Sequence record: OM632671.1
Source: Escherichia phage BEU50
Reading direction: 5' to 3' (one strand)
Length of the DNA stretch: 64,000 nucleotides
A model generated the notes under the pieces. It was given only the letters and a program-made list of their open reading frames with translations, was not told the origin of the DNA and searched no databases. The position numbers and the translations under genes were made by a program. Shown here one piece after another: positions 39,620 through 62,715 of this stretch; the first letter of the stretch is position 1; each line of letters starts with the position of its first letter.

Positions 39620-39840
39620 TGGCAAAGATAATTATTGAAGGTTCTGAAGATGTGCTAAATGCTTTCGCCGAGTGGTTTAGTAATTCAGGTGAACAACAAT
39701 TTAATGAAGCGTGGAATATGGGTGATATTGATGGAATTTATCCTACGACAGAAATTTCTGTTCAGGGATATGGCATTCATGAACCTATTCGTTTAGTTGA
39801 ATACGATTTATGTACTGGCGAGGAAGTCAAATATGATTGA
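39619..39840 (+). CDS. Hypothetical protein (73 aa)
   Basis: ATG overlapping upstream stop. Confidence 0.3.
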   Translation: MAKIIIEGSEDVLNAFAEWFSNSGEQQFNEAWNMGDIDGIYPTTEISVQGYGIHEPIRLVEYDLCTGEEVKYD

Positions 39841-40099
39841 AGATATTAAGGGTTATAAACCACATACCGACGAAAAAATCGGTAAAGTAAATGCTATTAA
39901 AGACGCTGAAGTTCGTTTAGGACTTATCTTTGATGCTTTATACGATGAATTTTGGGAAGCATTTGATAGCTGTGAAGATGATGAACTCGCGAAGAATTAC
40001 GCCGAAAGCCTCGATCAGTTAACTATTGCTAAAACGAAACTCAAAGAAGCAAGTATGTGGGCTTGCCGTGCTGTGTTCCAACCAGAGGAAAAATACTAA
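39833..40099 (+). CDS. Hypothetical protein (88 aa)
   Basis: ATGA start/stop overlap with previous ORF. Confidence 0.3.
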
Positions 40100-40377
40100 T
40101 GGCTCAATTAAGCGCAGGGTTTGGTTATGAGTATTATACTGCCCCTCGTCGTGTATCTGTTGCTCCTAAGAAAATTCAAAGTCTTGATGATTTCCAGGAA
40201 GTAGTCCGTAACGCTTTCCAGGACTATGCACGCTATCTTAAAGAAGATTCACAGGACTGTCTCGAAGAAGATGAAATTGCTTACTATACGCAGCGTCTTG
40301 AACAGCTCAAAAATCTACATGAGGTTCGTGCCGAAGTTTCAAAGTCTATGAATAAATTGATTAGATTTAAAGAATAA
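40099..40377 (+). CDS. Hypothetical protein (92 aa)
   Basis: ATG overlapping upstream stop. Confidence 0.3.
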
Positions 40378-40379
40378 CT

Positions 40380-40409
40380 GTTTACTTTTCCTCTTGACTG
40401 TGGTATAAT
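40380..40409 (+). promoter_or_regulatory. Early promoter (GTTTAC, 18 nt, TATAAT)
   Basis: Upstream of regB. Confidence 0.4.
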
Positions 40410-40436
40410 TTTTCTATCAGTTAAGAGGAGAATAAC

Positions 40437-40898
40437 ATGACTATCAACACAGAAGTTTTTATCCGTCGAAATAAGCTTCGTCGTCACTTTGAGTCGGAGT
40501 TTCGTCAAATTAACAATGAGATTCGTGAGGCATCAAAAGCAGCAGGGGTCTCATCGTTTCATCTAAAATATTCTCAGCATCTTCTTGATCGTGCAATTCA
40601 ACGGGAGATTGATGAGACATATGTTTTTGAATTATTCCACAAAATAAAAGACCATGTTTTAGAAGTTAATGAATTCCTGAGTATGCCTCCGCGTCCTGAC
40701 ATTGATGAGGATTTTATTGATGGGGTTGAATACCGTCCTGGACGTTTAGAAATCACAGATGGAAATCTTTGGCTTGGATTTACAGTTTGTAAACCTAATG
40801 CGAAGTTCAAAGACCCGTCGCTTCAATGCAGGATGGCAATTATCAATAGTCGTCGTTTACCAGGAAAGGCTTCTAAAGCAGTAATTAAAACTCAATGA
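40437..40898 (+). CDS. regB: Endoribonuclease RegB-like (153 aa)
   Basis: Length and sequence fit T4 RegB as I recall it; position upstream of tk. Confidence 0.6.
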   Translation: MTINTEVFIRRNKLRRHFESEFRQINNEIREASKAAGVSSFHLKYSQHLLDRAIQREIDETYVFELFHKIKDHVLEVNEFLSMPPRPDIDEDFIDGVEYRPGRLEITDGNLWLGFTVCKPNAKFKDPSLQCRMAIINSRRLPGKASKAVIKTQ

Positions 40899-40905
40899 GG
40901 TAAGC

Positions 40906-41451
40906 ATGAGAAAAGCACTACTCGCTGGTCTATTGGCCATTTCAATGATGGCACATAGCTCCGAGCATACTTTCAGTAATGTCCAACTCGATAACATGCG
41001 TTACGCGTATCAATTCGGGGAACAATTTTCTAAGGATGGAAAATATAAAACACACAAAAACATCCACAAGAGCGGATTGGGTCATATAATGGCTGCTATT
41101 TTGTGGCAAGAAAGCTCTGCCGGAGTTAATTTAAAATCTAAACCAAAGCATCACGCCTACGGAATGTTCCAAAATTATTTGCCTACTATGCGAGCGAGAG
41201 TTAAGGAACTTGGTTATAATATGACCGATGCTGAAATAAAAAGAATGTTGAATAAACGATCCAATTCAGCTTCCTGGGCGTACATTGAACTTTCTTATTG
41301 GTTAAATATACATAAGGGCGATATAAGAAAAGCAATATCCTCTTATAATTCGGGATGGAATGTTAAAGCAGGTTCTAAATATGCTTCTGAAGTCCTAGAA
41401 AAGGCTAATTACCTTAAAAATAATAAACTTTTGGAAATAGTAAATGACTAA
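40906..41451 (+). CDS. Secreted lytic transglycosylase-like protein (SLT-like motifs)
   Basis: Signal peptide MRKALLAGLLAISMMAHS; ILWQESSAG ... AYGMFQ ... SYNSGW resemble SLT family E-S / GLMQ / AYNAG motifs. Confidence 0.45.
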   Translation: MRKALLAGLLAISMMAHSSEHTFSNVQLDNMRYAYQFGEQFSKDGKYKTHKNIHKSGLGHIMAAILWQESSAGVNLKSKPKHHAYGMFQNYLPTMRARVKELGYNMTDAEIKRMLNKRSNSASWAYIELSYWLNIHKGDIRKAISSYNSGWNVKAGSKYASEVLEKANYLKNNKLLEIVND

Positions 41452-41785
41452 AATTTTGGTTTTATGTATAGGATTAATTTCATTTTCTGCGTTAGCAGAT
41501 ACATCATATACTGAAATTAGAGAGTATGTAAACCGTACTGCAGCGGATTATTGCGGGAAAAATAAAGCATGCCAAGCTGAATTTGCGCAGAAATTAATAT
41601 ATGCATATAAAGACGGAGAAAGAGATAAATCAAGCAGATACAAAAATGATACATTGTTAAAACGATATGCTAAAAAGTGGAATACCTTAGAATGTTCAGT
41701 TGCGGAGGAGAAAGATAAAGCCGCTTGTCATTCAATGGTTGACCGTTTAGTAGATTCTTATAATCGAGGATTGAGTACTAGATGA
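41444..41785 (+). CDS. Secreted small protein with four Cys (113 aa)
   Basis: Signal peptide MTKILVLCIGLISFSALA. Confidence 0.35.
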   Translation: MTKILVLCIGLISFSALADTSYTEIREYVNRTAADYCGKNKACQAEFAQKLIYAYKDGERDKSSRYKNDTLLKRYAKKWNTLECSVAEEKDKAACHSMVDRLVDSYNRGLSTR

Positions 41786-42261
41786 TTGTAAAATATATCA
41801 AGGGCGATATTGTCGCCCTATTTCTTCAAGGTAATATTATTGCGCACGGGTGCAATTGCTTCCACACAATGGGCTCTGGCGTAGCAGGTCAATTAGCAAG
41901 AGCCTATCCCAAAATTTTAGAAATAGATAAAACCACTACCGAGTACGGTTCTCGTGATAAATTAGGCGATATGTCTATTGTTTTTAAACATAGTCCTACG
42001 GGATTTGGTATATGCTATAACCTGTATACACAATACGAACCGGGTCCTAATCTTGATTATGGTGCTTTAGTAAACTGCATGATAGAATTAAATCTACAGG
42101 CAGAAACCCTTTTGTTTAAACCAGTAATTTACATTCCACGCATAGGTTGCGGTATTGCTGGTGGTGATTGGGATAAGGTTTCTAAATTAATCGACATGTT
42201 TACTCCTGATATTGATTTAATAGTGGTGGATTATGAAAGTACATTACCCGCATCCGTTTGA
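41782..42261 (+). CDS. Macro-domain-like protein (ADP-ribose binding/processing)
   Basis: GDIVALFLQGNIIAHGCNCFHTMGSGVAGQLARAYP resembles the macro-domain N-terminal signature (GDIT...VNAAN..L.GGGV.GAI); later PRIGCGIAGGDWDKV. Confidence 0.5.
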   Translation: MIVKYIKGDIVALFLQGNIIAHGCNCFHTMGSGVAGQLARAYPKILEIDKTTTEYGSRDKLGDMSIVFKHSPTGFGICYNLYTQYEPGPNLDYGALVNCMIELNLQAETLLFKPVIYIPRIGCGIAGGDWDKVSKLIDMFTPDIDLIVVDYESTLPASV

Positions 42262-43009
42262 TCCTAAAAACAAAGTGGAAATTATTCGTCAATGGGAACG
42301 CATTTGCCGTACTAAATGCCCAATTAATAGTCCACATGATGTAGATAAAGACTATATTGGAACATTCGTTGAATATACCTTTATTGATAGGAAAGGTCGT
42401 AAACAACATGTAGAAGAATATTGTTTAAAGGTTACATGGTTATGAGCCAAACTAGTATTCTTAAAAATGCCCATTGTGAAAAGTGTAAGTGGCCGATTGT
42501 TTTTGCTTTATGTAATGATGAAATGGCTTGTGATTTCGATTATTGGTGCTATTGTTCTAATAAAGGATGCATCAATCATAAAGGTGAAGGATTTTATTCA
42601 GGATTTTATCCTTATCCTGATTTCGTTAAAGAAGGTAAACCGAAATGAATAGTTTTGAGTTACAATATGAAGTGTTACGTGAGCTTGATAATTTAATTGA
42701 ACTCGCTGTCAATAAAGGTTTTGCCATTGGAATCGGTCAAAAAGATACTGGTCATTTAACTATGGAAATATTTAAGCAAAAGCGAATTATTTTAAAACTC
42801 CTGGAAATTAATATATGAGTCTGAGTAAAGAATAAAAAGATAAATTGTTTGAGCTTATCCATGAACTTCTAGATGAGCATGCAGAAGCAAACACCTTTTA
42901 TGATGAATACGGCCCGCTATCTCCCGAACAGCAAGAAGAATTTGCTGATCGGTTTGATAAGAAAGAAAACGAATTAATAGCTTATGTGAATATGCTTTAA
43001 GAAGGTGAT

Positions 43010-43591
43010 ATGGCGAGTTTAATTTTTACTTACGCAGCAATGAATGCTGGAAAATCTGCTTCTCTTTTGACTGCTGCACATAATTATAAAGAACGCGGAA
43101 TGAGTGTATTAGTTCTTAAGCCTGCTATTGATACTCGCGATTCTGTCTGTGAAGTCGTTTCTCGCATTGGAATTAAGCAGGAAGCGAATATTATTACAGA
43201 TGATATGGATATTTTCGAGTTCTATAAATGGGCTGAAGCACAAAAAGATATTCATTGCGTATTTGTAGATGAAGCTCAGTTTTTAAAAACTGAACAGGTG
43301 CATCAATTAAGTCGAATTGTTGATACATATAATGTTCCTGTTATGGCTTATGGATTAAGGACTGATTTCGCTGGAAAATTGTTTGAAGGTTCTAAAGAAC
43401 TTTTAGCGATTGCAGATAAACTTATTGAACTAAAGGCAGTTTGTCATTGCGGCAAAAAAGCGATTATGACAGCTCGATTAATGGAAGATGGAACACCAGT
43501 TAAAGAAGGTAATCAAATCTGTATTGGTGATGAAATTTATGTTTCTTTGTGTAGAAAACATTGGAACGAATTAACTAAAAAGCTCGGTTAG
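43010..43591 (+). CDS. tk: Thymidine kinase
   Basis: Walker A AAMNAGKSASLL, DEAQF, C-terminal zinc-binding CHCG...C..H; 193 aa. Confidence 0.9.
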   Translation: MASLIFTYAAMNAGKSASLLTAAHNYKERGMSVLVLKPAIDTRDSVCEVVSRIGIKQEANIITDDMDIFEFYKWAEAQKDIHCVFVDEAQFLKTEQVHQLSRIVDTYNVPVMAYGLRTDFAGKLFEGSKELLAIADKLIELKAVCHCGKKAIMTARLMEDGTPVKEGNQICIGDEIYVSLCRKHWNELTKKLG

Positions 43592-43600
43592 TGCAAAAGT

Positions 43601-43608
43601 TATAAATA
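43601..43608 (+). promoter_or_regulatory. Late promoter TATAAATA
   Basis: Exact octamer 26 nt upstream of the 43634 ATG. Confidence 0.4.
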
Positions 43609-43633
43609 GGTTTATCTAACTAAAGGGGTATAT

Positions 43634-43846
43634 ATGCTACAATTAACTGAAAAGCAACTTCGCAATCTTACTGTTCTTCAATTAGATGAAATTCGTAGGG
43701 AAGTTGGAAATATCATTTCAGCTTTGCGTCGAGAAGTATCACTCAACCAATCTCCGGCAGACTATACTAGATTGCGAAATTTTGAAAAATACCTTGATAA
43801 AGTTAAGGCCGTGCATCGGCATAAAGTAAATACAGGACAAAAATGA
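43634..43846 (+). CDS. Hypothetical protein (70 aa)
   Basis: ORF with RBS AAAGGGG. Confidence 0.3.
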
Positions 43847-43858
43847 TAGGAGGCCTTT

Positions 43859-44152
43859 ATGGCCTTAAAAGCAACGGCACTATTTGCCATGCTAGGATTA
43901 GCGTTTGCTTTATCTCCATCGATTGAAGCGAATGTCGATCCTCATTTTGATAAATTTATGGAATCTGGTATTAGACACGTTTATATGCTTTTTGAAAATA
44001 AAAGCGTAGAATCATCTGAACAGTTCTATAGTTTTATGCGAACGACTTATAAAAATGACCCGTGCTCTTCTGATTTTGAATGTATAGAGCGAGGCGCGGA
44101 GATGGCACAATCATACGCTAGAATTATGAACATTAAATTGGAGACTGAATGA
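43859..44152 (+). CDS. Secreted hypothetical protein (97 aa)
   Basis: Signal peptide MALKATALFAMLGLAFALSPSIEA. Confidence 0.35.
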   Translation: MALKATALFAMLGLAFALSPSIEANVDPHFDKFMESGIRHVYMLFENKSVESSEQFYSFMRTTYKNDPCSSDFECIERGAEMAQSYARIMNIKLETE

Positions 44153-44535
44153 AATTCAGCGACTTTTCACAAAGTGGAAAACCTTCAAAGGCAGATGAAT
44201 ACTTAGGTTTATTAATGGCTGCACAAGCTTATTTTCATTCTGCGCATTTTGAAACTAAAAGTTATGCTAGACACAAAGCATACGATTTTATTTTCTCCGA
44301 GTTGCCAGATTTGATTGATAAATTTGGTGAGCAATATTTGGGGTATTCTGGTAGAAAATACACACCTTCAATTCCAGATGCTAGTAAACTTCCTACCGAC
44401 ACAATTAAAATGATTGATCGCATACTAGACCAATCTAACAGCATTTATAAAGAAATGCCTCCAGCCATTCAAAGCACGATAGATGATATCACTGGGATGT
44501 TTTATCAGAGTAAATATCTTCTTTCCCTCGAATAA
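44149..44535 (+). CDS. Hypothetical protein (128 aa)
   Basis: ORF with ATGA overlap. Confidence 0.35.
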
Positions 44536-44539
44536 CGTT

Positions 44540-44563
44540 AGTCTCCTTCGGGAGACTTTTTTC
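44540..44563 (+). terminator. Intrinsic terminator (AGUCUCC-UUCG-GGAGACU followed by U6)
   Basis: 7-bp stem, UUCG loop, T6. Confidence 0.7.
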
Positions 44564-44572
44564 ATTTTACCG

Positions 44573-44602
44573 GTTTACTTTCCATTTGAGCTGTGATACT
44601 AT
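44573..44602 (+). promoter_or_regulatory. Early promoter (GTTTAC, 18 nt, TACTAT)
   Basis: Immediately after the terminator, upstream of the 44631 ATG. Confidence 0.4.
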
Positions 44603-44630
44603 ACAACCATCGGATAAAGAGGAGAACATC

Positions 44631-44819
44631 ATGAAAATTGAAGCACTTAATCAAGAAGGAAATATCTACGTCATCATTAATGGTGATTTTTTCGTCGACA
44701 TGGATGAAGTTACCAGTGAAGAACTTGTAGAACTTCTTAAGAAACGTTATAATATGTGTGATGAAGTTGCAACTCACATGGCGTGTGCAATATTCTCTCT
44801 TTCATATGTGGTGGAATAA
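44631..44819 (+). CDS. Hypothetical protein (62 aa)
   Basis: ATG preceded by AAGAGGAGAA. Confidence 0.3.
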
Positions 44820-45022
44820 TGAAAACTGAAAAGCAAGCGGATAAAATTAAGGAATTAGTGGCTTCAATTCGTAAAGCAGATGAAGAGCTGATTGACTTTG
44901 CTTGGTATTCATCGGGTATTTCGAATAAAGGCATTAAAGACTTTGAAACTAAAGTTGATAATGCTTTAGAAGCGTTAGATATGTTTCTTGATGAAATTAT
45001 CGATCATAATACGAGAGTTTAA
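44819..45022 (+). CDS. Hypothetical protein (67 aa), starts MKTEKQ within a 26-nt repeat
   Basis: ATG embedded in GGTGGAATAATGAAAACTGAAAAGCA. Confidence 0.3.
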   Translation: MKTEKQADKIKELVASIRKADEELIDFAWYSSGISNKGIKDFETKVDNALEALDMFLDEIIDHNTRV

Positions 45023-45024
45023 GT

Positions 45025-45219
45025 ATGCTAACACGTGAACAGTTTGAAAAAATCATTAAATTAGCACGTGATGTTGAAATAGATTCATATCAATTAGCAG
45101 TTGAGCATTGTGAAGGATATTCATACGATGGTATAGAATCAGCTAAAAGGGATTTGGATAAATCTAAAGCTAAGTTAGTCCAATATCTTGAAATGATTAG
45201 GTGGAATAATGAAAACTGA
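45025..45219 (+). CDS. Hypothetical protein (64 aa)
   Basis: ORF following 44819..45022. Confidence 0.3.
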   Translation: MLTREQFEKIIKLARDVEIDSYQLAVEHCEGYSYDGIESAKRDLDKSKAKLVQYLEMIRWNNEN

Positions 45220-45382
45220 AAAGCAGATGTTTTTAATGAAACTAATTGAAGAATATGCTAATGCAGTTTCTGACTATGAGCGTTCTTCTCGGGAAAGAGG
45301 TACAGCTTTCGCCAAAGAAGAAATGAAAATCATGGTTGATGCTCACACAAAGCTTCAGAATTTTATTGAAAACAACATTTAA
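45209..45382 (+). CDS. Hypothetical protein (57 aa), starts MKTEKQ within the second copy of the 26-nt repeat
   Basis: ATG embedded in second copy of GGTGGAATAATGAAAACTGAAAAGCA. Confidence 0.3.
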   Translation: MKTEKQMFLMKLIEEYANAVSDYERSSRERGTAFAKEEMKIMVDAHTKLQNFIENNI

Positions 45383-45870
45383 CGGTTTACAAGTTGGCAA
45401 GGTTATGGTATAGTAATCTTGTCAACTGTCAAGGAGAAGAGAATGAAAGTTTTGTTTGTTGTGTATGTAATGATTCAATATAATTACCCAATGTTTACTT
45501 ATAATCTGGTGAACAACATTATTGATATTATTCAAAGGAGTATGTAATTGTGAGTGAGTCGAAGAGAATCAATATGAAACGATTAGTATTAGAAGTTAGT
45601 CCGCTTTTTGGTGAATTGGCTATAGAAAAAGTAAATAACATGTATCGTTTGACGCAAGAAGACGATATGCTATATTTTACGCCTAGTGAAATCATTCATT
45701 TAACCCAAATTGAATATCCTTATACTGATAAAATAGTAAGTATCAATGATGAGCACAAAATTCATTGCTCGTTTGATTGAAGTTGAAGCCCAAATTGCAG
45801 AACACACCAAATTGTTAAAAGCTCTTAATGCAAAAGCAAATGGTTTACGTAATGCTATTGAGGTATTGAA

Positions 45871-46185
45871 ATGAAAAAGCGTCTATTAGAAGACATTGCA
45901 GCTTCAAGTAATTCCAGTTTAATTAAAATTATTATGGCCGGTGAAGAAGACGATCTGGAAATGCGTGGAAAGATTTATGGTTGTGATGATTATAGCAGCC
46001 CTATTAATTGGGATTCTGTAATGGTCATGGTTGAACGTCGCGAAAGGGCTTCTAAAAACGTTCCTAATTGCCCTGAATGTGGAACTGAACAGGTGCAATT
46101 AGTCCATTGGCAGACTAATAATCTTCGTTATAAATGTCGCCATTGTAAACACCGATTTGACCGAGAAGAAAATGACAAAGCGTAA
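45871..46185 (+). CDS. Small zinc-ribbon protein (104 aa)
   Basis: CPECG ... CRHCKH. Confidence 0.35.
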
Positions 46186-46415
46186 AGAATATATGGAGAC
46201 CGCCGAAAAGGCAGTCCGTGAATTAGCAATAGCTTATTATAATGAACACGGTAAATTTCCTGATAGATACAGCGTGCTTAAATCTGCTTTAACTCGTTCA
46301 TATAAAAATATGCTATCAGAAGTAAGTGATATTATATACAAACATAAAGAACAAACGGGCCAAAGTCTTGATTACGACGAGACTTTTAAACAAGTACTAG
46401 GAATTAAGGAATAAT

Positions 46416-46679
46416 ATGTTTAAAGTATATGGTTATGATAGCAACATCCATAAATGTGTGTATTGCGATAATGCAAAACGTCTTTTGACCGTGAAGAAAC
46501 AGCCGTTTGAATTTATCAACATTATGCCGGAAAAAGGTGTTTTTGATGATGAGAAAATCGCTGAGCTTCTGACTAAACTAGGTCGTGATACTCAAATCGG
46601 CTTAACAATGCCTCAGGTATTTGCTCCTGATGGAAGTCATATTGGTGGATTTGACCAATTGCGGGAATACTTTAAATGA
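46416..46679 (+). CDS. nrdC: Glutaredoxin/thioredoxin NrdC
   Basis: 87 aa; active-site CVYC; matches T4 NrdC from memory. Confidence 0.8.
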   Translation: MFKVYGYDSNIHKCVYCDNAKRLLTVKKQPFEFINIMPEKGVFDDEKIAELLTKLGRDTQIGLTMPQVFAPDGSHIGGFDQLREYFK

Positions 46680-47168
46680 TTCTCGAAGGAACTGATTATA
46701 TCCATGATTACCGCGGAAGCGCGGTATATGTAGGTGATGAAGTTGCAGTTTACTACGGGTATGGAACTTTGATGACAGCCAAGGTTATTCAAATTAAAAA
46801 TAATCGTGCTAAACTCGAAGTTTATTATTCTAACGGCGAAAAGTCTATTTCTAAGTGGAAATACGGCGATTGTATGGTCAAACTGGGGTAAATATGATTT
46901 ACGATATTAGTGCAGCAAGAGCTCCATCAATGGTTGCTATTCCAGCTGAAGAATTAGATCGTCTTCATAAAATTGAAGAACTTCTGTGGGAAATTGAATC
47001 TGATTTGCCATCAGGATTAGAATCCTGGATTGATTATGAAGAACTTAATAAGCTTCGGGGTTAAACCCTGGTGGGCGGCTAGATGGGAAACTGTAGAGCC
47101 AGAGCCGGAAGAACCGGTTTACACTGATGAAGAAACAGTATATAATGAACCAACGATAAATGACTTAA

Positions 47169-47672
47169 TTGATATGGAGATGGGACATGATTACAGTAGA
47201 TAAGTGGTTTAGAATTAATCGTGTTGATACAGGGCTATGTAATTACTGGCCGGAACTTAGTGCAGGTACTGTCTTTAAAGTTCGTGAACTTGCAAAAGAA
47301 TGTGAAGATGATATAGAACCTGATACTGGAATTATTGAAATTGAACTTTCTGATGGAAAGATTATTAACATCTATGATAAGCCAATTACGTATTGGTGCT
47401 TGTGGAATACTGAATCCGTTGAAAATGGCGAAATTGAAGAAGTTGTAGAGAGAACTAGCCAAGATGCTCAGAAGCCTAAAGCCGCTTTTCAAGGTGAACG
47501 TATTTCATACGCATTAGCTAAATTAGCTGCACAAGAAAATAACGATGGTTATGAAGGAAATTTAATGCAAGCTGCCGCAGAGTACATTGAATGGCTTGAA
47601 ACTCAAATTTCTTTTTCTGACCAAATGATTCGGCAATATAAGCGATTGCATCAAATGTTTTACAATACTTGA
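47169..47672 (+). CDS. Hypothetical protein (about 160 aa)
   Basis: ORF; its C-terminus (MIRQYKRLHQMFYNT) is repeated downstream. Confidence 0.35.
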   Translation: MIWRWDMITVDKWFRINRVDTGLCNYWPELSAGTVFKVRELAKECEDDIEPDTGIIEIELSDGKIINIYDKPITYWCLWNTESVENGEIEEVVERTSQDAQKPKAAFQGERISYALAKLAAQENNDGYEGNLMQAAAEYIEWLETQISFSDQMIRQYKRLHQMFYNT

Positions 47673-47925
47673 AAAAACTCAAAATTCTTTTTCTGACAAG
47701 GCATTTTAATGAAAACCGAATTGGTTTATACTGAAAAGTTAAATGGCGGTAAGGTTTGGAAACTTTTTATTAAAGGACATTCTACGGACCCTCATATGAC
47801 CACTTGCGTAGGAACCTATTCTCGTCCTACTAAAAAGATGATTCGACAGTATAAACGATTGCATCGAATGTTTTACAATACTTAAATAATAAATACCCTT
47901 ATCTATTTAAGGTAAGGGTTTTATT

Positions 47926-48399
47926 ATGTTATTGACTGGCAAATTATACAAAGAAGAAAAACAAAAATTTTATAATGTACAAAACGGTAAATGCTTAATT
48001 TGCCAACGAGAACTAAATCCTGATGTTCAAGCTAATCACCTTGACCATGACCATGAATTAAATGGACCAAAAGCAGGAAAGGTACGTGGATTGCTTTGTA
48101 ATCTCTGCAATGCTGCAGAAGGTCAAATGAAGCACAAATTTAATCGTTCTGGCTTAAAGGGTCAAGGTGTTGATTATCTTGAATGGTTAGAAAATTTACT
48201 TACTTATTTAAAATCCGATTACACCCAAAATAATATTCACCCTAACTTTGTTGGAGATAAATCAAAGGAATTTTCTCGTTTAGGAAAAGAGGAAATGATG
48301 GCCGAGATGCTTCAAAGTGGATTTGAATATAATGAATCTGACACCAAAACACAATTAATAGCTTCATTTAAGAAGCAGCTTAGAAAGAGTTTAAAATGA
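47926..48399 (+). CDS. 49: Endonuclease VII (gp49) Holliday junction resolvase
   Basis: 157 aa; GKCLICQREL...HLDHDHELNGPKAGKVRGLLCNLCN matches T4 endo VII from memory. Confidence 0.9.
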   Translation: MLLTGKLYKEEKQKFYNVQNGKCLICQRELNPDVQANHLDHDHELNGPKAGKVRGLLCNLCNAAEGQMKHKFNRSGLKGQGVDYLEWLENLLTYLKSDYTQNNIHPNFVGDKSKEFSRLGKEEMMAEMLQSGFEYNESDTKTQLIASFKKQLRKSLK

Positions 48400-49217
48400 A
48401 TGTAGTATATAAACTATCATTTATTAATAGAATTAATGCTAAAACCCCACCATATTATTACATTGGAAGTAAAACCAATTGCACTTTTGATGGAACGAAT
48501 ATTATTGATAAAAATGGTAAATTTTATTATTCGTCTTCGTCATCTTCTGAATTTCAAAAAGCCTTATTGAAAGAAACGCCGAAAGTTGAAATATTATATT
48601 TTCAATTAGTCGGAGATGAACAAATAACTAGCATTGAAGCTGAATTTCAAAAGAATATAGAAAAAGATGTATGGAATAAAGAGTATTTTAATTTAGCATA
48701 TGCTGATGGCAAATTTACGACATATGGTATTTCTCCTTCTAAAGAAACTAGAGAAAAGCAATCAATAACCATGATTAAAAGAAATCGTAATAAAGGCAAA
48801 AATCATGGATTTTATGGAAAGCATCATACTAATTTAGCTAGAAAGAAAATATCAGAAGCTTCTAAAAAATACTGGAAAGAAAATCCACATCGTGGATTTT
48901 CGCATACAAAGGAAGCTAAAATTAAAATTGGAATTTCATCTTCTATCAGGCATAAAGGAAGTGGAAATCCGATGTATGGTGTAAAACCTTGGAAAACTCC
49001 GAGCGCAATTAAATCTGGTACTTGTATATTATGGTTAAAATACGCAGAAATTTTATATGATTATTTAAGTCCAGATTTTAAAAGTAAATCATCTATTTTT
49101 GCGGATTTAAACTTACCGAAATTTAGAATTGATAATTTCATCAAAAGGTTTAAAATGGGTTGGAACCCATATTTAGACGAAGAATTTCAAAAGGATAAAT
49201 TAGAATTATGTCTTTAG
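48396..49217 (+). CDS. GIY-YIG homing endonuclease with NUMOD repeats, free-standing between 49 and nrdD
   Basis: N-terminal YKLSFINRINAKTPPYYYIGSK (GIY-YIG-like), repeated G..HTxxAxxKIS motifs. Confidence 0.6.
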   Translation: MNVVYKLSFINRINAKTPPYYYIGSKTNCTFDGTNIIDKNGKFYYSSSSSSEFQKALLKETPKVEILYFQLVGDEQITSIEAEFQKNIEKDVWNKEYFNLAYADGKFTTYGISPSKETREKQSITMIKRNRNKGKNHGFYGKHHTNLARKKISEASKKYWKENPHRGFSHTKEAKIKIGISSSIRHKGSGNPMYGVKPWKTPSAIKSGTCILWLKYAEILYDYLSPDFKSKSSIFADLNLPKFRIDNFIKRFKMGWNPYLDEEFQKDKLELCL

Positions 49218-50200
49218 AAAAAGATGTTTTAAATTTTATTTCAAATAAAGATAAAGAATTAAATACAGAAAACGCCAACAAAGATTCTCGCGTCTTTCCA
49301 ACAAAAAGAGATTTAATGGCCGGTATTGTTTCTAAACATATCGCTTGTCGTATTCTTCCAAGTCATATTGTAAATGCCCATAATGTTGGATTAATTCATT
49401 TTCATGATTTAGATTACAGTATATCATTGCCTTTTACTAATTGCTGTTTAGTAGATTTAAAAGGAATGCTTGAGAACGGGTTTAAGCTCGGTAATGCACA
49501 GATTGAAACTCCTAAATCAATCGGTGTTGCTACTGCAATTATGGCACAAATTACTGCACAGGTTGCTTCTCACCAATATGGCGGAACTACATTTGCTAAT
49601 GTCGATAAAGTACTTTCTCCTTATGTTAAACGCACCTATGCAAAACATATCGAAGACGCAGAAAAATGGCAAATCGCCGATGCGTTAAATTATGCTCAAT
49701 CTAAAACAGAAAAAGACGTATACGATGCATTCCAAGCTTATGAATATGAAGTAAATACTCTCTTTAGTTCAAACGGACAGACTCCTTTTGTAACAATTAC
49801 ATTTGGTACAGGAACTGACTGGACTGAACGAATGATTCAGAAAGCAATTCTGAAAAATCGTATTAAAGGTCTTGGTCGTGATGGGATAACTCCTATTTTC
49901 CCTAAGCTTGTTATGTTTGTTGAAGAAGGTGTTAATCTTTATAAAGACGATCCGAACTATGATATTAAGCAGCTTGCTCTAGAGTGTGCAAGCAAAAGAA
50001 TGTATCCTGATATTATTTCAGCTAAGAACAATAAAGCTATCACTGGTTCATCTGTTCCTGTTTCTCCAATGGGTTGCCGTAGTTTCTTGGGCGTATGGAA
50101 AGATTCGACTGGTAATGAAATTCTTGATGGACGTAATAATCTTGGCGTTGTAACACTGAATCTTCCTCGCATCGCGTTAGATTCTTATATTGGAACACAG
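49208..50200 (+). CDS. nrdD: Anaerobic ribonucleotide reductase NrdD, N-terminal about 330 codons only (truncated at a breakpoint)
   Basis: [72 protein letters not shown] match class III RNR; the glycyl-radical C-terminal half is absent and the ORF tail runs antisense into gene 37. Confidence 0.7.
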
Positions 50201-50205
50201 TTCAA

Positions 50206-50340
50206 TCCTGAGTCATCTTTTGTGAAAATTGTTTTATCTTTTAAGTTTATAGCCAATTCACCTTCGGCTAATACTGAAGCAGCAGGACGTTGACCTGCAG
50301 TTTTGCTTCTTTTAAATTGTATTTGTTTTAAAGTAGCCAT
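50206..50340 (-). other. 37: 5' fragment of long tail fibre distal subunit gene 37 (first 45 codons only)
   Basis: Minus-strand [45 protein letters not shown] matches the gp37 N-terminus, then diverges and stops after 6 more codons. Confidence 0.6.
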
Positions 50341-50348
50341 AAGTCCTC

Positions 50349-50999
50349 TTAATAATAGCCGAAATCTTGAACAGAATCCTTAATTACGATTTGGTCAAAT
50401 CGTGGAACGTGTGAAGGTTGAGATGCAGGATTCTGTGAAAAAAGGTTTGGCGCAGTTAAATTTCCTGTCATAGTGTCTCCAGAGCGTAATACCCTAGAGT
50501 TTGCATTTGCTGTAACAGTATTTATTGCTCCATCAACATAATCTTTACGAGTAGCATCTGATGCTGCGGAAGGAGTAGATGTAACAGTTACAGATGGAGC
50601 CGTTACAGCTTTGGTAAATGTTGTCAAACCTTCTGGCGTAATAGTAATTTGTCCAGTAGTGATTTCACTACCTGCTGGTCTAAAACTAATACCGCCAGAA
50701 GAGCCACCAACTACAAGAGTATTACCAGTGCCGCCACCAGAACGAATTCGGATGGGGGTTTCATTATTACTTAATTGAAGATAACTATTTACACCATAAT
50801 TAATAGTAACTGGGCCTGTGTAAGTACCACCAGTAGATTTAGAAACGAAATCATTATCAGCTGCCTGTGGTTTATTATATTCTGAATATATTTTAAATGA
50901 TTTGTAGAGTACATCGTCACCGGCTGAATTCAACGGAAAATTTCCTTGATGCCAAATGACAGATCCACCTACAGTTGAACCTCCTTTTAAATCAGCCAT
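50349..50999 (-). CDS. 36: Long tail fibre hinge protein gp36
   Basis: 216 aa; synteny 34-35-36-37 on the minus strand. Confidence 0.8.
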
Positions 51000-51022
51000 A
51001 GTATGCCCATTTATTTTAATAT

Positions 51023-51030
51023 TATTTATA
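51023..51030 (-). promoter_or_regulatory. Late promoter TATAAATA (minus strand) for gene 36
   Basis: Plus-strand TATTTATA about 24 nt upstream of the gp36 start. Confidence 0.5.
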
Positions 51031-51039
51031 AAGAAAAAA

Positions 51040-51055
51040 GGAGCCCGGCGGCTCC
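51040..51055 (-). terminator. Minus-strand terminator hairpin (GGAGCC-GCCG-GGCUCC followed by U6) between genes 35 and 36
   Basis: Reverse complement reads GGGAGCCGCCGGGCTCCTTTTTT. Confidence 0.5.
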
Positions 51056-51061
51056 CTCAGT

Positions 51062-52177
51062 TTAAACTTCTCTAAATTCCTGTCCAAACACTTTACCAGT
51101 TTTAGACGATGCCTGTGTAGGAAGTACCATTATATCTGGAGGTGAAGCCGATTCACAGACATAATTAACGCGAATACCATTGACGCCAAATTCGGCAGGT
51201 TTTGAAATGCCGCCATTTCTTGATACTTCAGAAAAGCTTAAATTTCTCATACCGCCTTGACCCGCTTGGGCGGTTCTCTGTGTGTATATCGTAAATCCTA
51301 CTGCATTTTCAGGAACAACTACATAATCTTCTTTTAATTCCCAAGACCCAGCTTGCCCAGTAAACTCAGCTTGGGTCGAGGAAATATATCCATTTGATGC
51401 ATCATAAAAACGAATAGATATATTTGCAGTTCCAAGATCAAGTAAATCAGCATCAGCATATAGTTGTGCTTTAAGATAAAGAACATCACCAGGAATTAAA
51501 TTGTAGTCAGAAAGTTTACTTATAGCAGCTGAAGTTGGTAAACGCGCAATTTCATTATTAGTTCCACCAACCGCAGACATAAATTGCTCAACGCTTTCGT
51601 ATGTTCTTTTAGGAAATCCTGTAGCTCCGACGTCTTCTAAACTATCAAATACAACATCTAAAATAGTTTGATAATCATCTGTGCTTTTTCTATTACTTAG
51701 TTTAACATGCTCTAATGCAATAGCTCTTTTAGAAGAAGTATAAAAAGCAGCATATGACACGTCAAATCTTGACAATACTGAATCTGATGGAAAAACTGAA
51801 GTTCCTGCTCCCCTTAACCAAGATACCACTTCAGGAGGAAAATTAACCTTTCCGCTAGTTAATATAGCAACAAGTCTATTGTTTGACAAAGAATTCATGA
51901 AACTGACAAAAGTGGTAGATGTTGTATTGTTTGAAGCAGAAAAAGCATATGACTTACTATCAACTAATGCTCCCGTAGAAGGGTCAAAAACTCTTAAATG
52001 AAGACCTGCACTAAATGTTTGATTTCCAACGGGATTATCCTGAAATTTAACATATGGTCCCGCAGTAGAAAGCGGGCAAGAACCCGCTATGCTTATTTTA
52101 TATCTTACTGAATTGCTTTCCGATAAAAATGGCGTTTGGACATATCCTTGTCCAAACTCTGCCATAAATTTTTCCAT
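51062..52177 (-). CDS. 35: Long tail fibre protein gp35
   Basis: 371 aa; synteny. Confidence 0.8.
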   Translation of the reverse strand: MEKFMAEFGQGYVQTPFLSESNSVRYKISIAGSCPLSTAGPYVKFQDNPVGNQTFSAGLHLRVFDPSTGALVDSKSYAFSASNNTTSTTFVSFMNSLSNNRLVAILTSGKVNFPPEVVSWLRGAGTSVFPSDSVLSRFDVSYAAFYTSSKRAIALEHVKLSNRKSTDDYQTILDVVFDSLEDVGATGFPKRTYESVEQFMSAVGGTNNEIARLPTSAAISKLSDYNLIPGDVLYLKAQLYADADLLDLGTANISIRFYDASNGYISSTQAEFTGQAGSWELKEDYVVVPENAVGFTIYTQRTAQAGQGGMRNLSFSEVSRNGGISKPAEFGVNGIRVNYVCESASPPDIMVLPTQASSKTGKVFGQEFREV

Positions 52178-52185
52178 AATACCTC

Positions 52186-55100
52186 TTATTCAACCCATTC
52201 AAATTTAACAGTTTTATTCACTGGGTCAGGAATAATGCGAACATTACCAATTCGTAAGAAATCACGAATAGTAAGATTACCTATTATTCCATTATCAGAT
52301 GGGATTGCTCCTATATCCGAAGGTTGAGGAGGATTACCTCCATCGAATACCTGAACAAAACTTGACCAAGAGTTTTTGGTTTTCTGCCATGTACGTGTCC
52401 AGCGAGTGGTACGTGCTTCTGGGGTCGTTGGATAAGTAATCCAATCTTGGTAAAGTGAATCAAGTGTGTTACCAAACTGAGTCAATGTACCAGGAGATTT
52501 AACTTCTTCACCGCGTTCTAAATATGGAAGTCCAGTCACTTCATTAGTTTTTTCAACCATTTTAAAATAACCCGGGAACTGGTTATAAGTGGCTGAATCA
52601 TTAATATCGATTGACCAGAATCCTACAGTATCAGATGTTGGCGCACGGGTATATAAATCAGATGTTTTAACACCTTGAGAACGAATTCTCGAGTTAACAG
52701 TTAAACCGCCTGAACTTATAGTAGCACCTTTTGCAATGATTAAGCTTTCACCAATCGTTACTTGGCCAGATGCATTATTAATAGATAAAGGACGTAATCC
52801 ATTAAATCCGCCAGTTTGATCACCCGATGCAGTAAGCATAAAATTCGTTACTGACCCATCATTGCGAACAATGAAACCATAATTTCCGTTAATAGCACGG
52901 AAAGCATTTGCGCTTCGAGAAATAATTTCACCAGTTGCAGTGACTGAATTACCAAATGTTGCTACACCATTTGCATTCAATGTTCCTGAAGCATTAACAT
53001 TTATCGGTGTTACTGTACCGTTGATATTAAATGTTATATTTCCAGCTTTATTACGCTGAGAATAAAAATGACTAGACGTTTCATCACTAACTTCAAATAC
53101 GGTAGAACGTGTTGTGTCTGATTCCCCACTAAATTGATTTCCCCACACTCTGACTGTCATCGTTTGAGCCGGGTTTGTTCCAGTTTGAGGTCCTTTCTCA
53201 AAAATCAATCGAGTTGCCGTTCCAGTATTAGAAATAGTTAATGTACTATTTGCTGAAACTGATCCACCGAATGTAGCAGTACTAGATGATACAAGAGGGG
53301 CACTCAGATTCGTTTGTTGGGTTAAGGTTAGTGAACCATTAACTGTTTGTGCAATGTCCCTACGAATGAACTGGAGCGAATCTAGACCATCTAATAAATT
53401 ACTATCTACAGCTTTTGCTTTTAATGGCAAATAATTTGCTAATACGCGATTTAATTCATATGGTGATACTGCATAACCATTTTTCTCATATGATTCTAAT
53501 GGTTGTGTTGAACCTACCGTATCATTACCAACGAATGTAATTGAACCAGATGAAGTTTTAACAAACCCTCTTATCAGAGTAGTTGCTGCCCAAGTTGGTT
53601 CACTCTGCACAATCCATTTTAAATTTTTTGGAGATACAGCAGTATTTGCTGATGTTCCAGTCACAGTTTCAGACTGAGTTGCAACTTTAATAACACCTTC
53701 CTGTGCTTCAGTAGATTTAGTACCTAAAAGCTTTTTAGGAGTTATTAAAACATTATCTAATGTTCCTGCAGCAGCTTCAACTTGTGTAGCTACACGAAGT
53801 GTACCACGCTGTGTCTCATTTGCTTCAAGAATATTAAGTGTATAATGGTCCCAGAGAGTTCCTGATTCAACTAATCCAGATAGAGCAACAACAGAAGTAC
53901 GATCAGTACTATTAAATCTAGTTTTAATTTTTAATGGTGTAGAGATGCGAGTATCGTCGACGCCTGCGTCGAATTCAACTTGCGTAGCAATTTCAGCTAT
54001 ACCACTTAAACTTTCAGTTGCTCTACGGTCATTTAAAGTTTTAGGAGTGACTGCACGAGTATAGTCAGTTCCTGTGTTAACTTCACTTTGCGTAGCAATT
54101 TCAATTAAACCAATTCTTCCATCAGTTGATGTCTTTTTATGTAACGTTTCTGGCGTTACAACCGCATTTGCCCATCCTTCTTGGCTTTGTCCAGCAATTA
54201 CTTCACTTTCAACTGCTAAAATTACTGCGCCTTGTTGCGTTGGAGTAGCTTTATACTGATCCAAAGCTTTAGGTGAAACAACTAAATTATTAGTGTTTTT
54301 ATTATAAACATTCGTACCATTTAATTCACGGCTAGAAGCTGGAGTAGCTCCTGCAGTAGATACATAAGTTACAATACCAGATAATGATTCAGAACCTTGG
54401 CGAGCTTGAAGCTTTTTAGGAGTGATGATTGTAGTATCATCAGTACCTGTATTAGTTTCCTGCTGCGTAGCAATTTCAGCGACACCTCTACGAGTTTCTG
54501 TAGCAGTTCTTTCATTCAGCTTTTTAGGAGTGATGATAAGGTCATCTGCAAAAGAGAATGTGGTGTTCTGATTCACTTGAGCAGTAGTTGCTATTCTTGC
54601 AATACCTCTGCGAGTTTCTGTAGCAGTACGATTAGCTAACGTTTCTGGAGTAATTGCTAATTCTTTTTGTGGAGAATTTTCTAAATCAGCATTTGCTTGA
54701 GCTTGCGTAGCTAAAGCAATTACGCCTAATCTTGCTCTAGTAGAAGCATTTAAAGAGTCTACTCTTTCTACAGTTGGAACGTTTTGCTGTACAACCCAGC
54801 ATTTTCCATCAGAATCTTCTATATAAGCAAGTTGTAAAACTGGAACATAATTAGTTTCACCGTTAAAAACTAATTCTTGAACTGTTACCCATTCAGCTTC
54901 AGGCGGATATTCTGAACGTTTTGGGAATTGCAGCAATTGAACTGAGGAAGCAATTTTATCTTCACCTGCAGCTTTGATTTTAACTGTTTGTCCTTTTCTC
55001 ATGTAATTCATGGAAATTTTAACAGTATCACCAACAGAAATATCAGTCGGAAGCTGAAGTTCAATTGTTTGGGTTGTTCCATTATTCGCGCCAAATACCA

Positions 55101-56055
55101 TGACTTCTTCATTTGGACGAATATTAGAATTAGTTGTTATAATGCGTAAACGTGCTTTACTATCCCCGTCAAACAATCTCCACAATTTCTCATTATCATC
55201 AAACATCAAGAAACCGTCAATCGATGTACGGCCTTCAATGGAATGAGTTCCAACTTCTTGCACTGACGTTGTTTCATCATATGTCGTAACAATTGTATGA
55301 TAAAGTGGATTTAATTTATCTAAATCAACGAAATTAATGATATCTCCATGATTGGCAAATCTTGGAAGCTTAACATTAATCGGCGCGGCAGAAGTAAATC
55401 TACGTACGATAAAATCATTAGATTGTGCTTGATATGCAGTCGATGGAGTAACAATCGCAGCTTCTCTGCTATAATCAGCAATATACATTTGCCACAAACG
55501 ATTATTAAAAATGAATACCATCTGTGACTTTGGATGAGTCATTAAAACTGAACGTACCTGTTCACCTCTAAAATTGACAATACTCTGATTTGAAGAATTT
55601 ATTTTAACCTGATTTATGCCAGGTTTTCCACCGATATCTTGAATTATTACGGTTTCTCCATCAAGCGGAGAAGGTGGTAAAGTAAACTCAATGTCATTGC
55701 CAACTGATGTATCTACTGAAATTGCTTCTCCGGATTTTAATTGATATGGTCCAGATGATACGGTTGTATATACAGCATCAGTACGTAATGCTTTCCAACG
55801 AATTCTATTAAAATTTCCAGCAGGTTTTGGAATATTATCCGTTGCTGCCCAAAAACGATTATTATAAATGATTACAAAATCTTTTAAATATCCACGAGTT
55901 GGATCATATTGCTGAACTGTGTTTTCTTGAATTAAGTAATCAACGTTAACACCGTCAGTTCCTACGGTACGATCAGCTAAAGCTACGTTGATTATTTTAT
56001 CGCCACCTGCGTCCAGACCATCTTCTGCTCTGAACTTTCTTTTAATCTCGGCCAT
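52186..56055 (-). CDS. 34: Long tail fibre proximal subunit gp34
   Basis: 1289 aa, same length as T4 gp34; fibrous repeat-rich sequence. Confidence 0.9.
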   Translation of the reverse strand: MAEIKRKFRAEDGLDAGGDKIINVALADRTVGTDGVNVDYLIQENTVQQYDPTRGYLKDFVIIYNNRFWAATDNIPKPAGNFNRIRWKALRTDAVYTTVSSGPYQLKSGEAISVDTSVGNDIEFTLPPSPLDGETVIIQDIGGKPGINQVKINSSNQSIVNFRGEQVRSVLMTHPKSQMVFIFNNRLWQMYIADYSREAAIVTPSTAYQAQSNDFIVRRFTSAAPINVKLPRFANHGDIINFVDLDKLNPLYHTIVTTYDETTSVQEVGTHSIEGRTSIDGFLMFDDNEKLWRLFDGDSKARLRIITTNSNIRPNEEVMVFGANNGTTQTIELQLPTDISVGDTVKISMNYMRKGQTVKIKAAGEDKIASSVQLLQFPKRSEYPPEAEWVTVQELVFNGETNYVPVLQLAYIEDSDGKCWVVQQNVPTVERVDSLNASTRARLGVIALATQAQANADLENSPQKELAITPETLANRTATETRRGIARIATTAQVNQNTTFSFADDLIITPKKLNERTATETRRGVAEIATQQETNTGTDDTTIITPKKLQARQGSESLSGIVTYVSTAGATPASSRELNGTNVYNKNTNNLVVSPKALDQYKATPTQQGAVILAVESEVIAGQSQEGWANAVVTPETLHKKTSTDGRIGLIEIATQSEVNTGTDYTRAVTPKTLNDRRATESLSGIAEIATQVEFDAGVDDTRISTPLKIKTRFNSTDRTSVVALSGLVESGTLWDHYTLNILEANETQRGTLRVATQVEAAAGTLDNVLITPKKLLGTKSTEAQEGVIKVATQSETVTGTSANTAVSPKNLKWIVQSEPTWAATTLIRGFVKTSSGSITFVGNDTVGSTQPLESYEKNGYAVSPYELNRVLANYLPLKAKAVDSNLLDGLDSLQFIRRDIAQTVNGSLTLTQQTNLSAPLVSSSTATFGGSVSANSTLTISNTGTATRLIFEKGPQTGTNPAQTMTVRVWGNQFSGESDTTRSTVFEVSDETSSHFYSQRNKAGNITFNINGTVTPINVNASGTLNANGVATFGNSVTATGEIISRSANAFRAINGNYGFIVRNDGSVTNFMLTASGDQTGGFNGLRPLSINNASGQVTIGESLIIAKGATISSGGLTVNSRIRSQGVKTSDLYTRAPTSDTVGFWSIDINDSATYNQFPGYFKMVEKTNEVTGLPYLERGEEVKSPGTLTQFGNTLDSLYQDWITYPTTPEARTTRWTRTWQKTKNSWSSFVQVFDGGNPPQPSDIGAIPSDNGIIGNLTIRDFLRIGNVRIIPDPVNKTVKFEWVE

Positions 56056-56089
56056 TCTCCCGGGCTCCTATTGTGTTTTCAATAATAAG

Positions 56090-56097
56090 TATTTATA
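56090..56097 (-). promoter_or_regulatory. Late promoter TATAAATA (minus strand) for gene 34
   Basis: Plus-strand TATTTATA 35 nt upstream of the gp34 start. Confidence 0.45.
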
Positions 56098-56100
56098 CTT

Positions 56101-56130
56101 GTTTACTTTAAGATTTAGATAGTATATAAT
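56101..56130 (+). promoter_or_regulatory. Early promoter for rnh (GTTTAC, 16-18 nt, TATATAAT), divergent from the gene 34 late promoter
   Basis: Consensus-like elements 30 nt upstream of the rnh ATG. Confidence 0.4.
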
Positions 56131-56159
56131 AGAAATCTCACTAATTGAACGAGGTTCAT

Positions 56160-57077
56160 ATGGATTTAGAAATGATGTTGGATGAAGATTACAAAGAAGG
56201 AATTTGCTTAATTGACTTTAGTCAGATTGCGCTTTCAACTGCTCTGGTAAACTTCCCAGATAAAGAAAAAATTAATTTATCAATGGTTCGTCATTTGATA
56301 TTGAACTCAATTAAGTTTAATGTCAAAAAAGCAAAAACGCTTGGATACACTAAAATTGTGCTGTGTATTGATAACGCGAAATCTGGATACTGGCGTCGTG
56401 ATTTTGCTTATTATTATAAGAAAAACCGTGGAAAAGCACGAGAAGAATCTACTTGGGACTGGGAAGGTTATTTTGAATCCAGCCATAAAGTTATAGATGA
56501 ATTGAAAGCTTATATGCCATACATTGTTATGGATATTGATAAGTATGAAGCAGATGACCACATTGCTGTTCTTGTTAAAAAGTTCTCTTTAGAAGGACAT
56601 AAGATTTTAATCATTTCATCGGATGGTGACTTTACACAGCTTCACAAATATCCAAATGTTAAGCAATGGTCACCGATGCATAAGAAATGGGTTAAAATTA
56701 AAAGCGGTTCTGCTGAAATTGACTGTATGACTAAAATCCTTAAAGGCGACAAAAAGGATAACGTTGCTTCAGTTAAAGTACGATCTGACTTTTGGTTTAC
56801 CAAAGTTGAAGGTGAACGGACTCCTTCAATGAAAACTTCAATCGTTGAAGCTATTGCTAATGATCGTGAGCAAGCTAAGGTGCTTCTCACAGAATCTGAA
56901 TATAATCGTTATAAAGAAAATTTAGTTCTAATTGATTTTGATTATATTCCTGATAATATTGCTTCAAACATTGTGAATTACTATAATTCATATAAATTAC
57001 CACCGCGTGGCAAAATTTATTCATATTTTGTAAAAGCGGGTCTTTCTAAATTAACTAATAGCATTAATGAATTTTGA
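56160..57077 (+). CDS. rnh: RNase H / 5'-3' flap exonuclease (rnh)
   Basis: MDLEMMLDEDYKEGICLIDFSQIA... matches T4 RNase H from memory; ATG at 56160 preferred over 56145. Confidence 0.9.
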   Translation: MDLEMMLDEDYKEGICLIDFSQIALSTALVNFPDKEKINLSMVRHLILNSIKFNVKKAKTLGYTKIVLCIDNAKSGYWRRDFAYYYKKNRGKAREESTWDWEGYFESSHKVIDELKAYMPYIVMDIDKYEADDHIAVLVKKFSLEGHKILIISSDGDFTQLHKYPNVKQWSPMHKKWVKIKSGSAEIDCMTKILKGDKKDNVASVKVRSDFWFTKVEGERTPSMKTSIVEAIANDREQAKVLLTESEYNRYKENLVLIDFDYIPDNIASNIVNYYNSYKLPPRGKIYSYFVKAGLSKLTNSINEF

Positions 57078-57085
57078 GGTGAATA

Positions 57086-57355
57086 ATGGCTAAAAAAGAA
57101 ATGGTTGAATTTGATGAAGCTATCCATGGCGAAGACTTGGCTAAATTTATTAAAGAAGCATCTGATCATAAACTGAAAATTTCCGGTTATAATGAACTGA
57201 TTAAAGATATTCGAATTCGTGCTAAAGATGAACTTGGCGTTGATGGTAAGATGTTTAATCGTCTATTAGCTTTGTATCATAAAGATAACCGTGATGTGTT
57301 TGAAGCTGAAACTGAAGAGGTAGTTGAACTTTATGACACAGTTTTCTCTAAATGA
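57086..57355 (+). CDS. dsbA: DsbA-like late transcription enhancer protein
   Basis: 89 aa; T4 position between rnh and 33. Confidence 0.5.
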   Translation: MAKKEMVEFDEAIHGEDLAKFIKEASDHKLKISGYNELIKDIRIRAKDELGVDGKMFNRLLALYHKDNRDVFEAETEEVVELYDTVFSK

Positions 57356-57671
57356 CATTCGTCCGGTCGATGAGACCGGTCTTTCAGAAAAAGAACTTTC
57401 AATTAAGAAAGAAAAGGATGAAATAGCAAAGCTTCTTGATCGTCAAGAAAATGGATTTATTATTGAAAAAATGGTAGAAGAGTTTGGAATGAGTTATCTT
57501 GAAGCTACAACAGCATTCTTAGAAGAAAATTCTATTCCTGAAACTCAATTTGCTAAATTTATTCCTTCGGGTATAATTGAAAAAATTCAGTCAGAAGCTA
57601 TTGACGAAAATCTTTTACGTCCTTCTGTTGTTCGTTGTGAAAAAACTAATACATTAGATTTTCTACTATGA
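57324..57671 (+). CDS. 33: Late transcription co-activator gp33-like
   Basis: About 112 aa; position immediately upstream of the gene 59 start; start may be ATG 57333. Confidence 0.5.
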   Translation: MNFMTQFSLNDIRPVDETGLSEKELSIKKEKDEIAKLLDRQENGFIIEKMVEEFGMSYLEATTAFLEENSIPETQFAKFIPSGIIEKIQSEAIDENLLRPSVVRCEKTNTLDFLL

Positions 57672-57727
57672 TTAAACTCCGCATGCCTGCTGGTGGTGAA
57701 AGATACATTGATGGTAAATCAGTTTAG
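57668..57727 (+). other. 59: 5' fragment of helicase loader gene 59 (first 19 codons then stop)
   Basis: [19 protein letters not shown] matches the gp59 N-terminus as recalled, followed immediately by TAG TGA. Confidence 0.55.
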
Positions 57728-57810
57728 TGAGTATTTTGATAATAAAATTTCTACAGTTAAAACTTCTTCTGATTGTTACTATGATATTACTGTTTTGACG
57801 GAAAAACAAT

Positions 57811-58137
57811 ATGTTGAATTATCACCGCGCGGGCCGTCTATGCCGGGTAGTGAATAAATATAAATCCGACTTTGATGTTAATATTCACCGTGGTACATTT
57901 TGGGGAAATTACGTCGGTAAAGATGCTGGCAGCCGGGAGGCTGCCATTGAATTATTCAAAAAAGATTTTATACGTCGAATTAAATCCGGAGAAATAACTA
58001 AAGCACATTTAGAGCCTTTACGTGGAATGAGGCTAGGATGCACATGTAAACCAAAGCCGTGTCATGGTGATATAATAGCTCATATAGTTAACCGACTGTT
58101 TAAAGACGATTTTCAAGTTGAGGACTTATGCAATTAA
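57811..58137 (+). CDS. Hypothetical Cys/His-rich protein (108 aa, DUF4326-like pattern)
   Basis: RGTFWGNY ... [18 protein letters not shown] pattern; overlaps nrdA start by 10 nt. Confidence 0.35.
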
Positions 58138-62711: not shown

Positions 62712-62715
62712 GGAC

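Follow-up and report, generated by a model that had tools for sequence, protein, structure and literature searches.

The locus described here lies in a 64,000-nt stretch of DNA from Escherichia phage BEU50 (OM632671.1), which as a whole is referred to below as the window. On its left is the intron-less 5' part of nrdD (49208..50206, + strand; 999 nt, 333 codons), the gene for the large subunit of class III ribonucleotide reductase, and on its right are the first 134 nt of gene 37 (50207..50340, - strand), which encode only the conserved N-terminus of the distal subunit of the long tail fibre. The two meet at 50206..50207 (junction B), where nrdD codon 333 abuts antisense nucleotide 134 of gene 37 in a blunt join with 0 nt shared. 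An open reading frame of 361 aa (49208..50293, + strand) runs across this point and comprises NrdD residues 1-333 followed by 28 codons read antisense through gene 37, with its stop at 50293; on the opposite strand, an ORF of 51 aa (50185..50340, - strand) consists of gp37 residues 1-45, the six residues LNCVPI and a stop codon. The initial annotation had described a breakpoint fusing the middle of nrdD to the start of gene 37, with gene 37 beginning correctly on the minus strand and diverging after 45 codons, and both points are borne out at base resolution. It had also let the nrdD match end at the residues NLPRIAL and give way to antisense gene 37; the succession stands, but the end point moves, as similarity to NrdD runs 9 residues further.

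The NrdD fragment of the window is 97.9% identical to native NrdD, a protein of 605 aa that, in phage PTE-Eco15, matches positions 1-562 of the Pfam family NRDD (PF13597) and carries a Gly_radical domain (PF01228) at residues 481-586. By comparison, the 361-aa ORF covers positions 1-293 of the 562 in Pfam NRDD, such that the full-length fold is absent, and the Gly_radical domain is missing from it. The remainder of both genes, which the initial annotation had proposed should be sought, was found nowhere else in the window by tblastn with the two native proteins; only residues 1 to ~333 of NrdD were recovered, and the C-terminal half of that protein is absent throughout. In native contigs, the activase gene nrdG (Radical_SAM) is located 0-0.7 kb downstream of nrdD, whereas in the window this place is taken by antisense gene 37.

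Between gene 49 and nrdD, the window contains an ORF of 273 aa for a homing endonuclease with a NUMOD3 motif (48396-49217, + strand), which overlaps each of its two neighbours by a few bases. This ORF occurs in neither T4 nor Shigella phage SHFML-26, but it is native in PTE-Eco15, and an identical protein is encoded by at least 13 public contigs, those read in an exact-protein look-up; thus, it is an ordinary free-standing mobile endonuclease. Genomic context was obtained for five of these 13 contigs. In all five, nrdD is complete, either as a 605-aa frame or split by an intron, and the match to the window ends exactly at 50206. Four of the five extend past nrdD, and the next frame in these is either an HNH (mobC-like) ORF or nrdG itself. 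Three of the five (L010, L012, and L013) reach far enough upstream to show a full nrdC.3, and in these the match to the window starts exactly at 45762; nrdC.4 is also full in native contigs. With respect to introns, nrdD is uninterrupted at window positions 49743-49746, precisely where T4 carries the I-TevII group I intron, and the gene is split at that same site around an ORF of 256-258 aa in three of the contigs (L011, L012, and L014), two of which (L011 and L014) give a weak GIY-YIG-type Pfam match for that ORF. An intron or homing event as the origin of junction B was considered and ruled out, since the site at which the intron inserts in nrdD is ~460 nt upstream of the junction.

On the other side of junction B, the 45 retained residues of gp37 are 97.8% identical to gp37 of phage GADU22, which is 988 aa long, and gene 36 lies immediately upstream. 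The ~1,000-residue shaft and the C-terminal receptor-binding tip of gp37 are absent from the window, in which tblastn revealed no other part of the protein apart from a weak match (37.5%) inside gene 34, and gene 38 is likewise absent when the window is mapped onto T4. The exact 1,289-aa gp34 of the window has no entry in the public gene collection. With an NrdD fragment devoid of the Gly_radical domain and a gp37 reduced to 45 of ~988 residues, both truncations are confirmed, in keeping with the initial view that a tail-fibre gene of 45 codons could not function.

To characterize the junction, window positions 49200-51200 were used as a megablast query against 50,697 phage records. All alignments split at 50206|50207, and all of the 30 matches listed end at query positions 1007|1008; among the 873 matching phage records, none spans the junction (a spanning record being one whose match covers >=80% of a junction-centred query). 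In base-level alignments with the closest native nrdD (PTE-Eco15) and the closest native gene 37 (GADU22), the nrdD match continues up to and including 50206 and the antisense gene 37 match begins at 50207, with an overlap of 0 nt between the two sides; accordingly, exactly 333 codons (999 nt) of nrdD and 134 nt of gene 37 are retained in the window. At the boundary, each of the two native sequences carries a G that is missing from the window. The exact 35-mer across junction B had 0 matches in IMG/VR, in the JGI metagenomes, or in the GTDB genomes (one per species), a query of 621 nt spanning the join matched nothing among E. coli complete genomes or PLSDB plasmids, and the exact proteins of the fusion ORFs at this junction and at a second one (junction A, below) are absent from the public gene collection. 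One rival reading is that a natively short NrdD and a natively short gp37 variant end or start here, an outcome that the initial annotation had set against its own proposal. The native genes, however, run through the boundary in every reference and metagenome contig examined (nrdD to 605 aa, gene 37 to 988 aa), and the NrdD fragment lacks its Gly_radical domain; we therefore dismiss this reading altogether.

Junction B is one of four such points in the window, which is made up of five stretches set one after another: one piece of ~39 kb from a Mosigvirus and four excerpts of 4.4-7.5 kb from a Tequatrovirus. Block 1 (1..39346) is RB69-like, spans genes 46 through rIIA (+ strand), breaks off 178 nt short of the stop codon of rIIA, and forms a single collinear alignment of 39.4 kb with Escherichia phage a20 at 98.76% identity; against T4 (NC_000866, onto which the whole window was mapped), positions 1 to ~38,200 of the window correspond to 34,177>1,272 at an identity of only 68-77%. 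Block 2a (39347..45766) contains vs.6', then regB, tk, and rI, and finally mobD.1', corresponds to T4 63,828>57,624, and aligns as one piece with SHFML-26 (98.5%). Block 2b (45767..50206) comprises nrdC.3', nrdC.2, nrdC, pin, 49, the 273-aa endonuclease, and nrdD codons 1-333, with window positions 45,762-50,206 equivalent to T4 49,045>44,354. Block 3 (50207..57726) holds 37' and the tail-fibre genes 36 (50349-50999), 35 (51062-52177), and 34 (52186-56055), all on the - strand, followed on the + strand by rnh, dsbA, 33, and the first 59 nt of gene 59; it again forms a single alignment with SHFML-26 (98.8%) and corresponds to about T4 156,676>149,138. Block 4 (57727..64000; T4 143,081>136,676) carries nrdA.2', nrdA, nrdB with an intron-type endonuclease ORF, denA, and part of rnlA, and is contiguous in PV295201.1, in which the sole break relative to the window falls at junction C (below).

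The four Tequatrovirus blocks are mostly 84-98% identical to T4, with a drop to ~78% in the final 2 kb (nrdB to rnlA), and 97.7-98.8% identical to SHFML-26 in the main alignments, with lower values (85.7-92%) for the nrdB region and for the nrdD fragment. They are co-oriented and follow one another monotonically in SHFML-26 (127.0>120.6, 111.9>108.3, 53.6>46.1, and 39.6>32.8 kb), and for every block in the window, one or more native genomes contain the interior without a break. Identity to public records falls short of 100% in every block, indicating that the pieces are not mere copies of entries in the collections searched.

Several further features of the blocks were recorded in passing. Between pin and gene 49, an ORF of 58 aa (47709-47885) repeats the C-terminus of Pin at its own C-terminus (MIRQYKRLHRMFYNT), reflecting a duplication of ~50 nt (window 47675-47885); this ORF is probably native, as SHFML-26 also has a 58-aa ORF annotated at the same position. 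The nrdB gene (60444-62711) is apparently split around a full-length intron-type endonuclease ORF of 269 aa (61264-62073), and a split nrdB with a full-length endonuclease is also found in SHFML-26 and a20, whereas T4 has only the defective I-TevIII remnant. No group I intron reached the Rfam gathering threshold anywhere in the window, and a tRNA scan was likewise empty. In the Mosigvirus block, the region downstream of the DNA polymerase gene (7830-11078) encodes, according to the a20 annotation, an arabinose-5-phosphate isomerase and a phosphoheptose isomerase, and in addition a homing endonuclease; the isomerase genes are presumably tied to the known sugar-modified hydroxymethylcytosine of RB69-type phages.

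The five stretches are held together by four blunt-type joins (39346|39347, ~45762-45766, 50206|50207, and 57726|57727), all within 18.4 kb and every one of them intragenic, with genes cut on both sides. Junction A (39346..39347) connects the interior of Mosigvirus rIIA to the interior of Tequatrovirus vs.6 (grcA-like); it is blunt, matches from both sides stop at it, and it is spanned by 0 of 735 records. Junction D (45762..45766) leads from the interior of mobD.1 to the tail of nrdC.3, with ~8.7 kb of native sequence missing, and is spanned by none of 509 records. Junction C (57726..57727), also blunt, leads from the interior of gene 59 to the interior of nrdA.2, and 0/515 records span it; its gap amounts to 6,444 bp of native sequence, including most of 59, a seg-type endonuclease, 32, frd, and td. 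In base-level alignments, the exact overlap between the two sides is 0 nt at junctions A, B, and C and 1 nt at junction D (5 nt if one mismatch is allowed), and no microhomology or direct repeats were found at any of the four. Nor is there a linker, a run of N, or an adapter at any of them, and inspection by eye revealed no restriction or endonuclease site common to the four. The truncated and fused ORFs near the joins, such as the 685-aa rIIA' ORF at 37311-39368, are by-products of the seams.

These properties bear directly on two technical routes by which foreign pieces may come to adjoin each other. An assembler may misjoin contigs through a repeat or through sequence shared between co-assembled strains, and a mixture of two related phage genera is a typical setting for such graph chimeras. 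However, a misjoin of this kind requires the two sides to have in common a sequence no shorter than the k-mer or overlap length, while the joins share 0-1 nt and have non-homologous genes on their two sides; the longest exact matches to the Mosigvirus proxy near the segment ends measure 24, 16, and 12 nt, and none of them is terminal. We thus regard this route as extremely unlikely. A physical chimera formed in vitro, by ligation during library preparation or as a concatenated long read, and then kept as a contig, would typically display blunt, homology-free joins between pieces of a few kilobases, as are seen here. Such ligation should nonetheless yield random order and orientation, under which four pieces in a single orientation and in circular map order have a chance of ~(1/8)x(1/6), or roughly 2% by our own estimate, and neither adapter nor linker remains at the joins, making this origin improbable as well, if somewhat less so.

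The extent of what is missing must also be considered. Relative to SHFML-26, the gap at junction B is ~54.7 kb (~56.6 kb in T4 terms), and in T4 it contains the 3' half of nrdD, nrdG, 55, 47, 46, 45, 44, 62, 43, 42, uvsX, 41, 61, 39, 60, rIIA, rIIB, 52, motA, asiA, t, 38, and nearly all of 37; taken together, the missing intervals between the Tequatrovirus blocks include 43, 41, 32, and most of 37. As T4 genetics has established, a phage without the genes missing at junctions B and C is unable to replicate or assemble alone. In the native Tequatrovirus nrdD-nrdG and 36-37-38 loci (T4, PTE-Eco15, GADU22, and SHFML-26), the parts retained in the window are 97-99% identical and have the same neighbours, with 49 and a homing endonuclease upstream of nrdD and 36-35-34 beside gene 37, but the two loci lie ~55 kb apart with both genes complete, whereas in the window they abut and both are cut.

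A real deletion of ~55 kb from nrdD to gene 37, one of several in an existing defective Tequatrovirus, could in principle account for this arrangement, having arisen by illegitimate recombination and being propagated by a helper such as a co-occurring Mosigvirus. Junctions D, B, and C are all of the deletion type, the single orientation and monotonic order of the four Tequatrovirus blocks are what true deletions would also give (and in that respect a counterpoint to an artefact), and the genes lost at junction B overlap with those supplied by the Mosigvirus block. T4 mutants with deletions formed in vivo by illegitimate recombination, for example rII deletions, resemble the window in that internal sequence is lost, order and orientation are kept, and two truncated genes are fused. 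However, viable T4 deletions remove non-essential DNA, whereas the window loses ~55 kb of largely essential genes with endpoints that share 0 nt. Three deletions in 25 kb would take out many essential genes, and no short direct repeats are present at any endpoint, although T4 deletions reportedly usually end in such repeats. Moreover, junction A is an inter-genus, non-homologous join rather than a deletion, the Mosigvirus block is out of map order, and the window contains two genera, with no single parental genome bearing the essential genes to be seen. Junction B was also found nowhere else in the 35-mer and fusion protein searches, and we know of no helper-dependent defective T4 genomes of a comparable kind. 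A genuine deletion is consequently highly improbable. A related proposal is that the window is a faithful read-out of multiply deleted, helper-dependent DNA derived from a Tequatrovirus, possibly joined to or co-packaged with a Mosigvirus, that arose by homology-independent end joining in a mixed infection. Such DNA would make a T4-type counterpart to defective interfering genomes; we consider it exceedingly doubtful that the window records DNA of this sort.

The explanation that best accommodates these observations is that the nrdD|gene 37 junction is very probably a seam in a composite sequence and not a biological structure, a judgement drawn from sequence comparisons. It is favoured because four unsupported, blunt, intragenic joins fall within 18.4 kb, essential genes are lost, and the native context is intact elsewhere, and also because junction A joins two genera at non-homologous loci. 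More broadly, the whole 64-kb window almost certainly combines two phage genera and hides four seams, as judged from the alignments; it displays several non-native joins that no independent genome supports, and its pieces come from different source genomes. The initial annotation had left the choice between an assembly or composite artefact and a deletion in a defective genome; that pair of options is supported, and the evidence favours the composite artefact.

Such a composite most probably arose from a fragmentary or mixed-phage assembly in which contigs would have been lined up along a reference and then fused with no gap characters between them, or, by an alternative route, from a consensus in which uncovered regions would have been dropped. 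An adjoining record or contig of a second phage would then have followed. The single orientation and monotonic order of the Tequatrovirus blocks suggest one or the other of these routes, and the end of the Mosigvirus block suggests the terminus of a record or contig, given that T4-type records conventionally begin at the stop codon of rIIA and block 1 breaks off only 178 nt away from it. As a further counterpoint to an artefact, none of the segment ends falls within a stretch that the Mosigvirus proxy shares. Were the junction a seam of this kind, the truncated NrdD and the 45-residue gp37 stub would be its function-less by-products.

A comparable non-native jump has a public precedent in Escherichia phage vB_EcoM_Maryam (PQ799574.1), a T4-like record of 113 kb labelled as a 'complete genome', although T4-type genomes are much longer at ~168 kb. 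Like the window, this record (L015) is collinear with T4 over tens of kilobases (79,980>32,548) and then jumps abruptly, flipping to T4 163,619>167,221 at ~45,988-46,394. The single jump examined in Maryam inverts the orientation, whereas the window has four co-oriented joins and a second genus. Other public T4-like records that look defective are PV290051.1 and PV654520.1; vB_EcoT_BCU-2 (47 kb) has matches at the same coordinates as Maryam, and 'Pseudomonas phage vB_PSGBLB0006' (142 kb) matches T4-type DNA at 100% identity over 427 nt.

Junction B reveals no new gene, element, or mechanism, and its importance is one of data hygiene: any findings from the window on adjacency, operons, truncation, or 'missing' essential genes near 39.3, 45.8, 50.2, and 57.7 kb are suspect. 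To our knowledge, no helper-dependent defective genomes have been described in T-even phages; if the joins were physically real, the window would be evidence for such genomes in this group.
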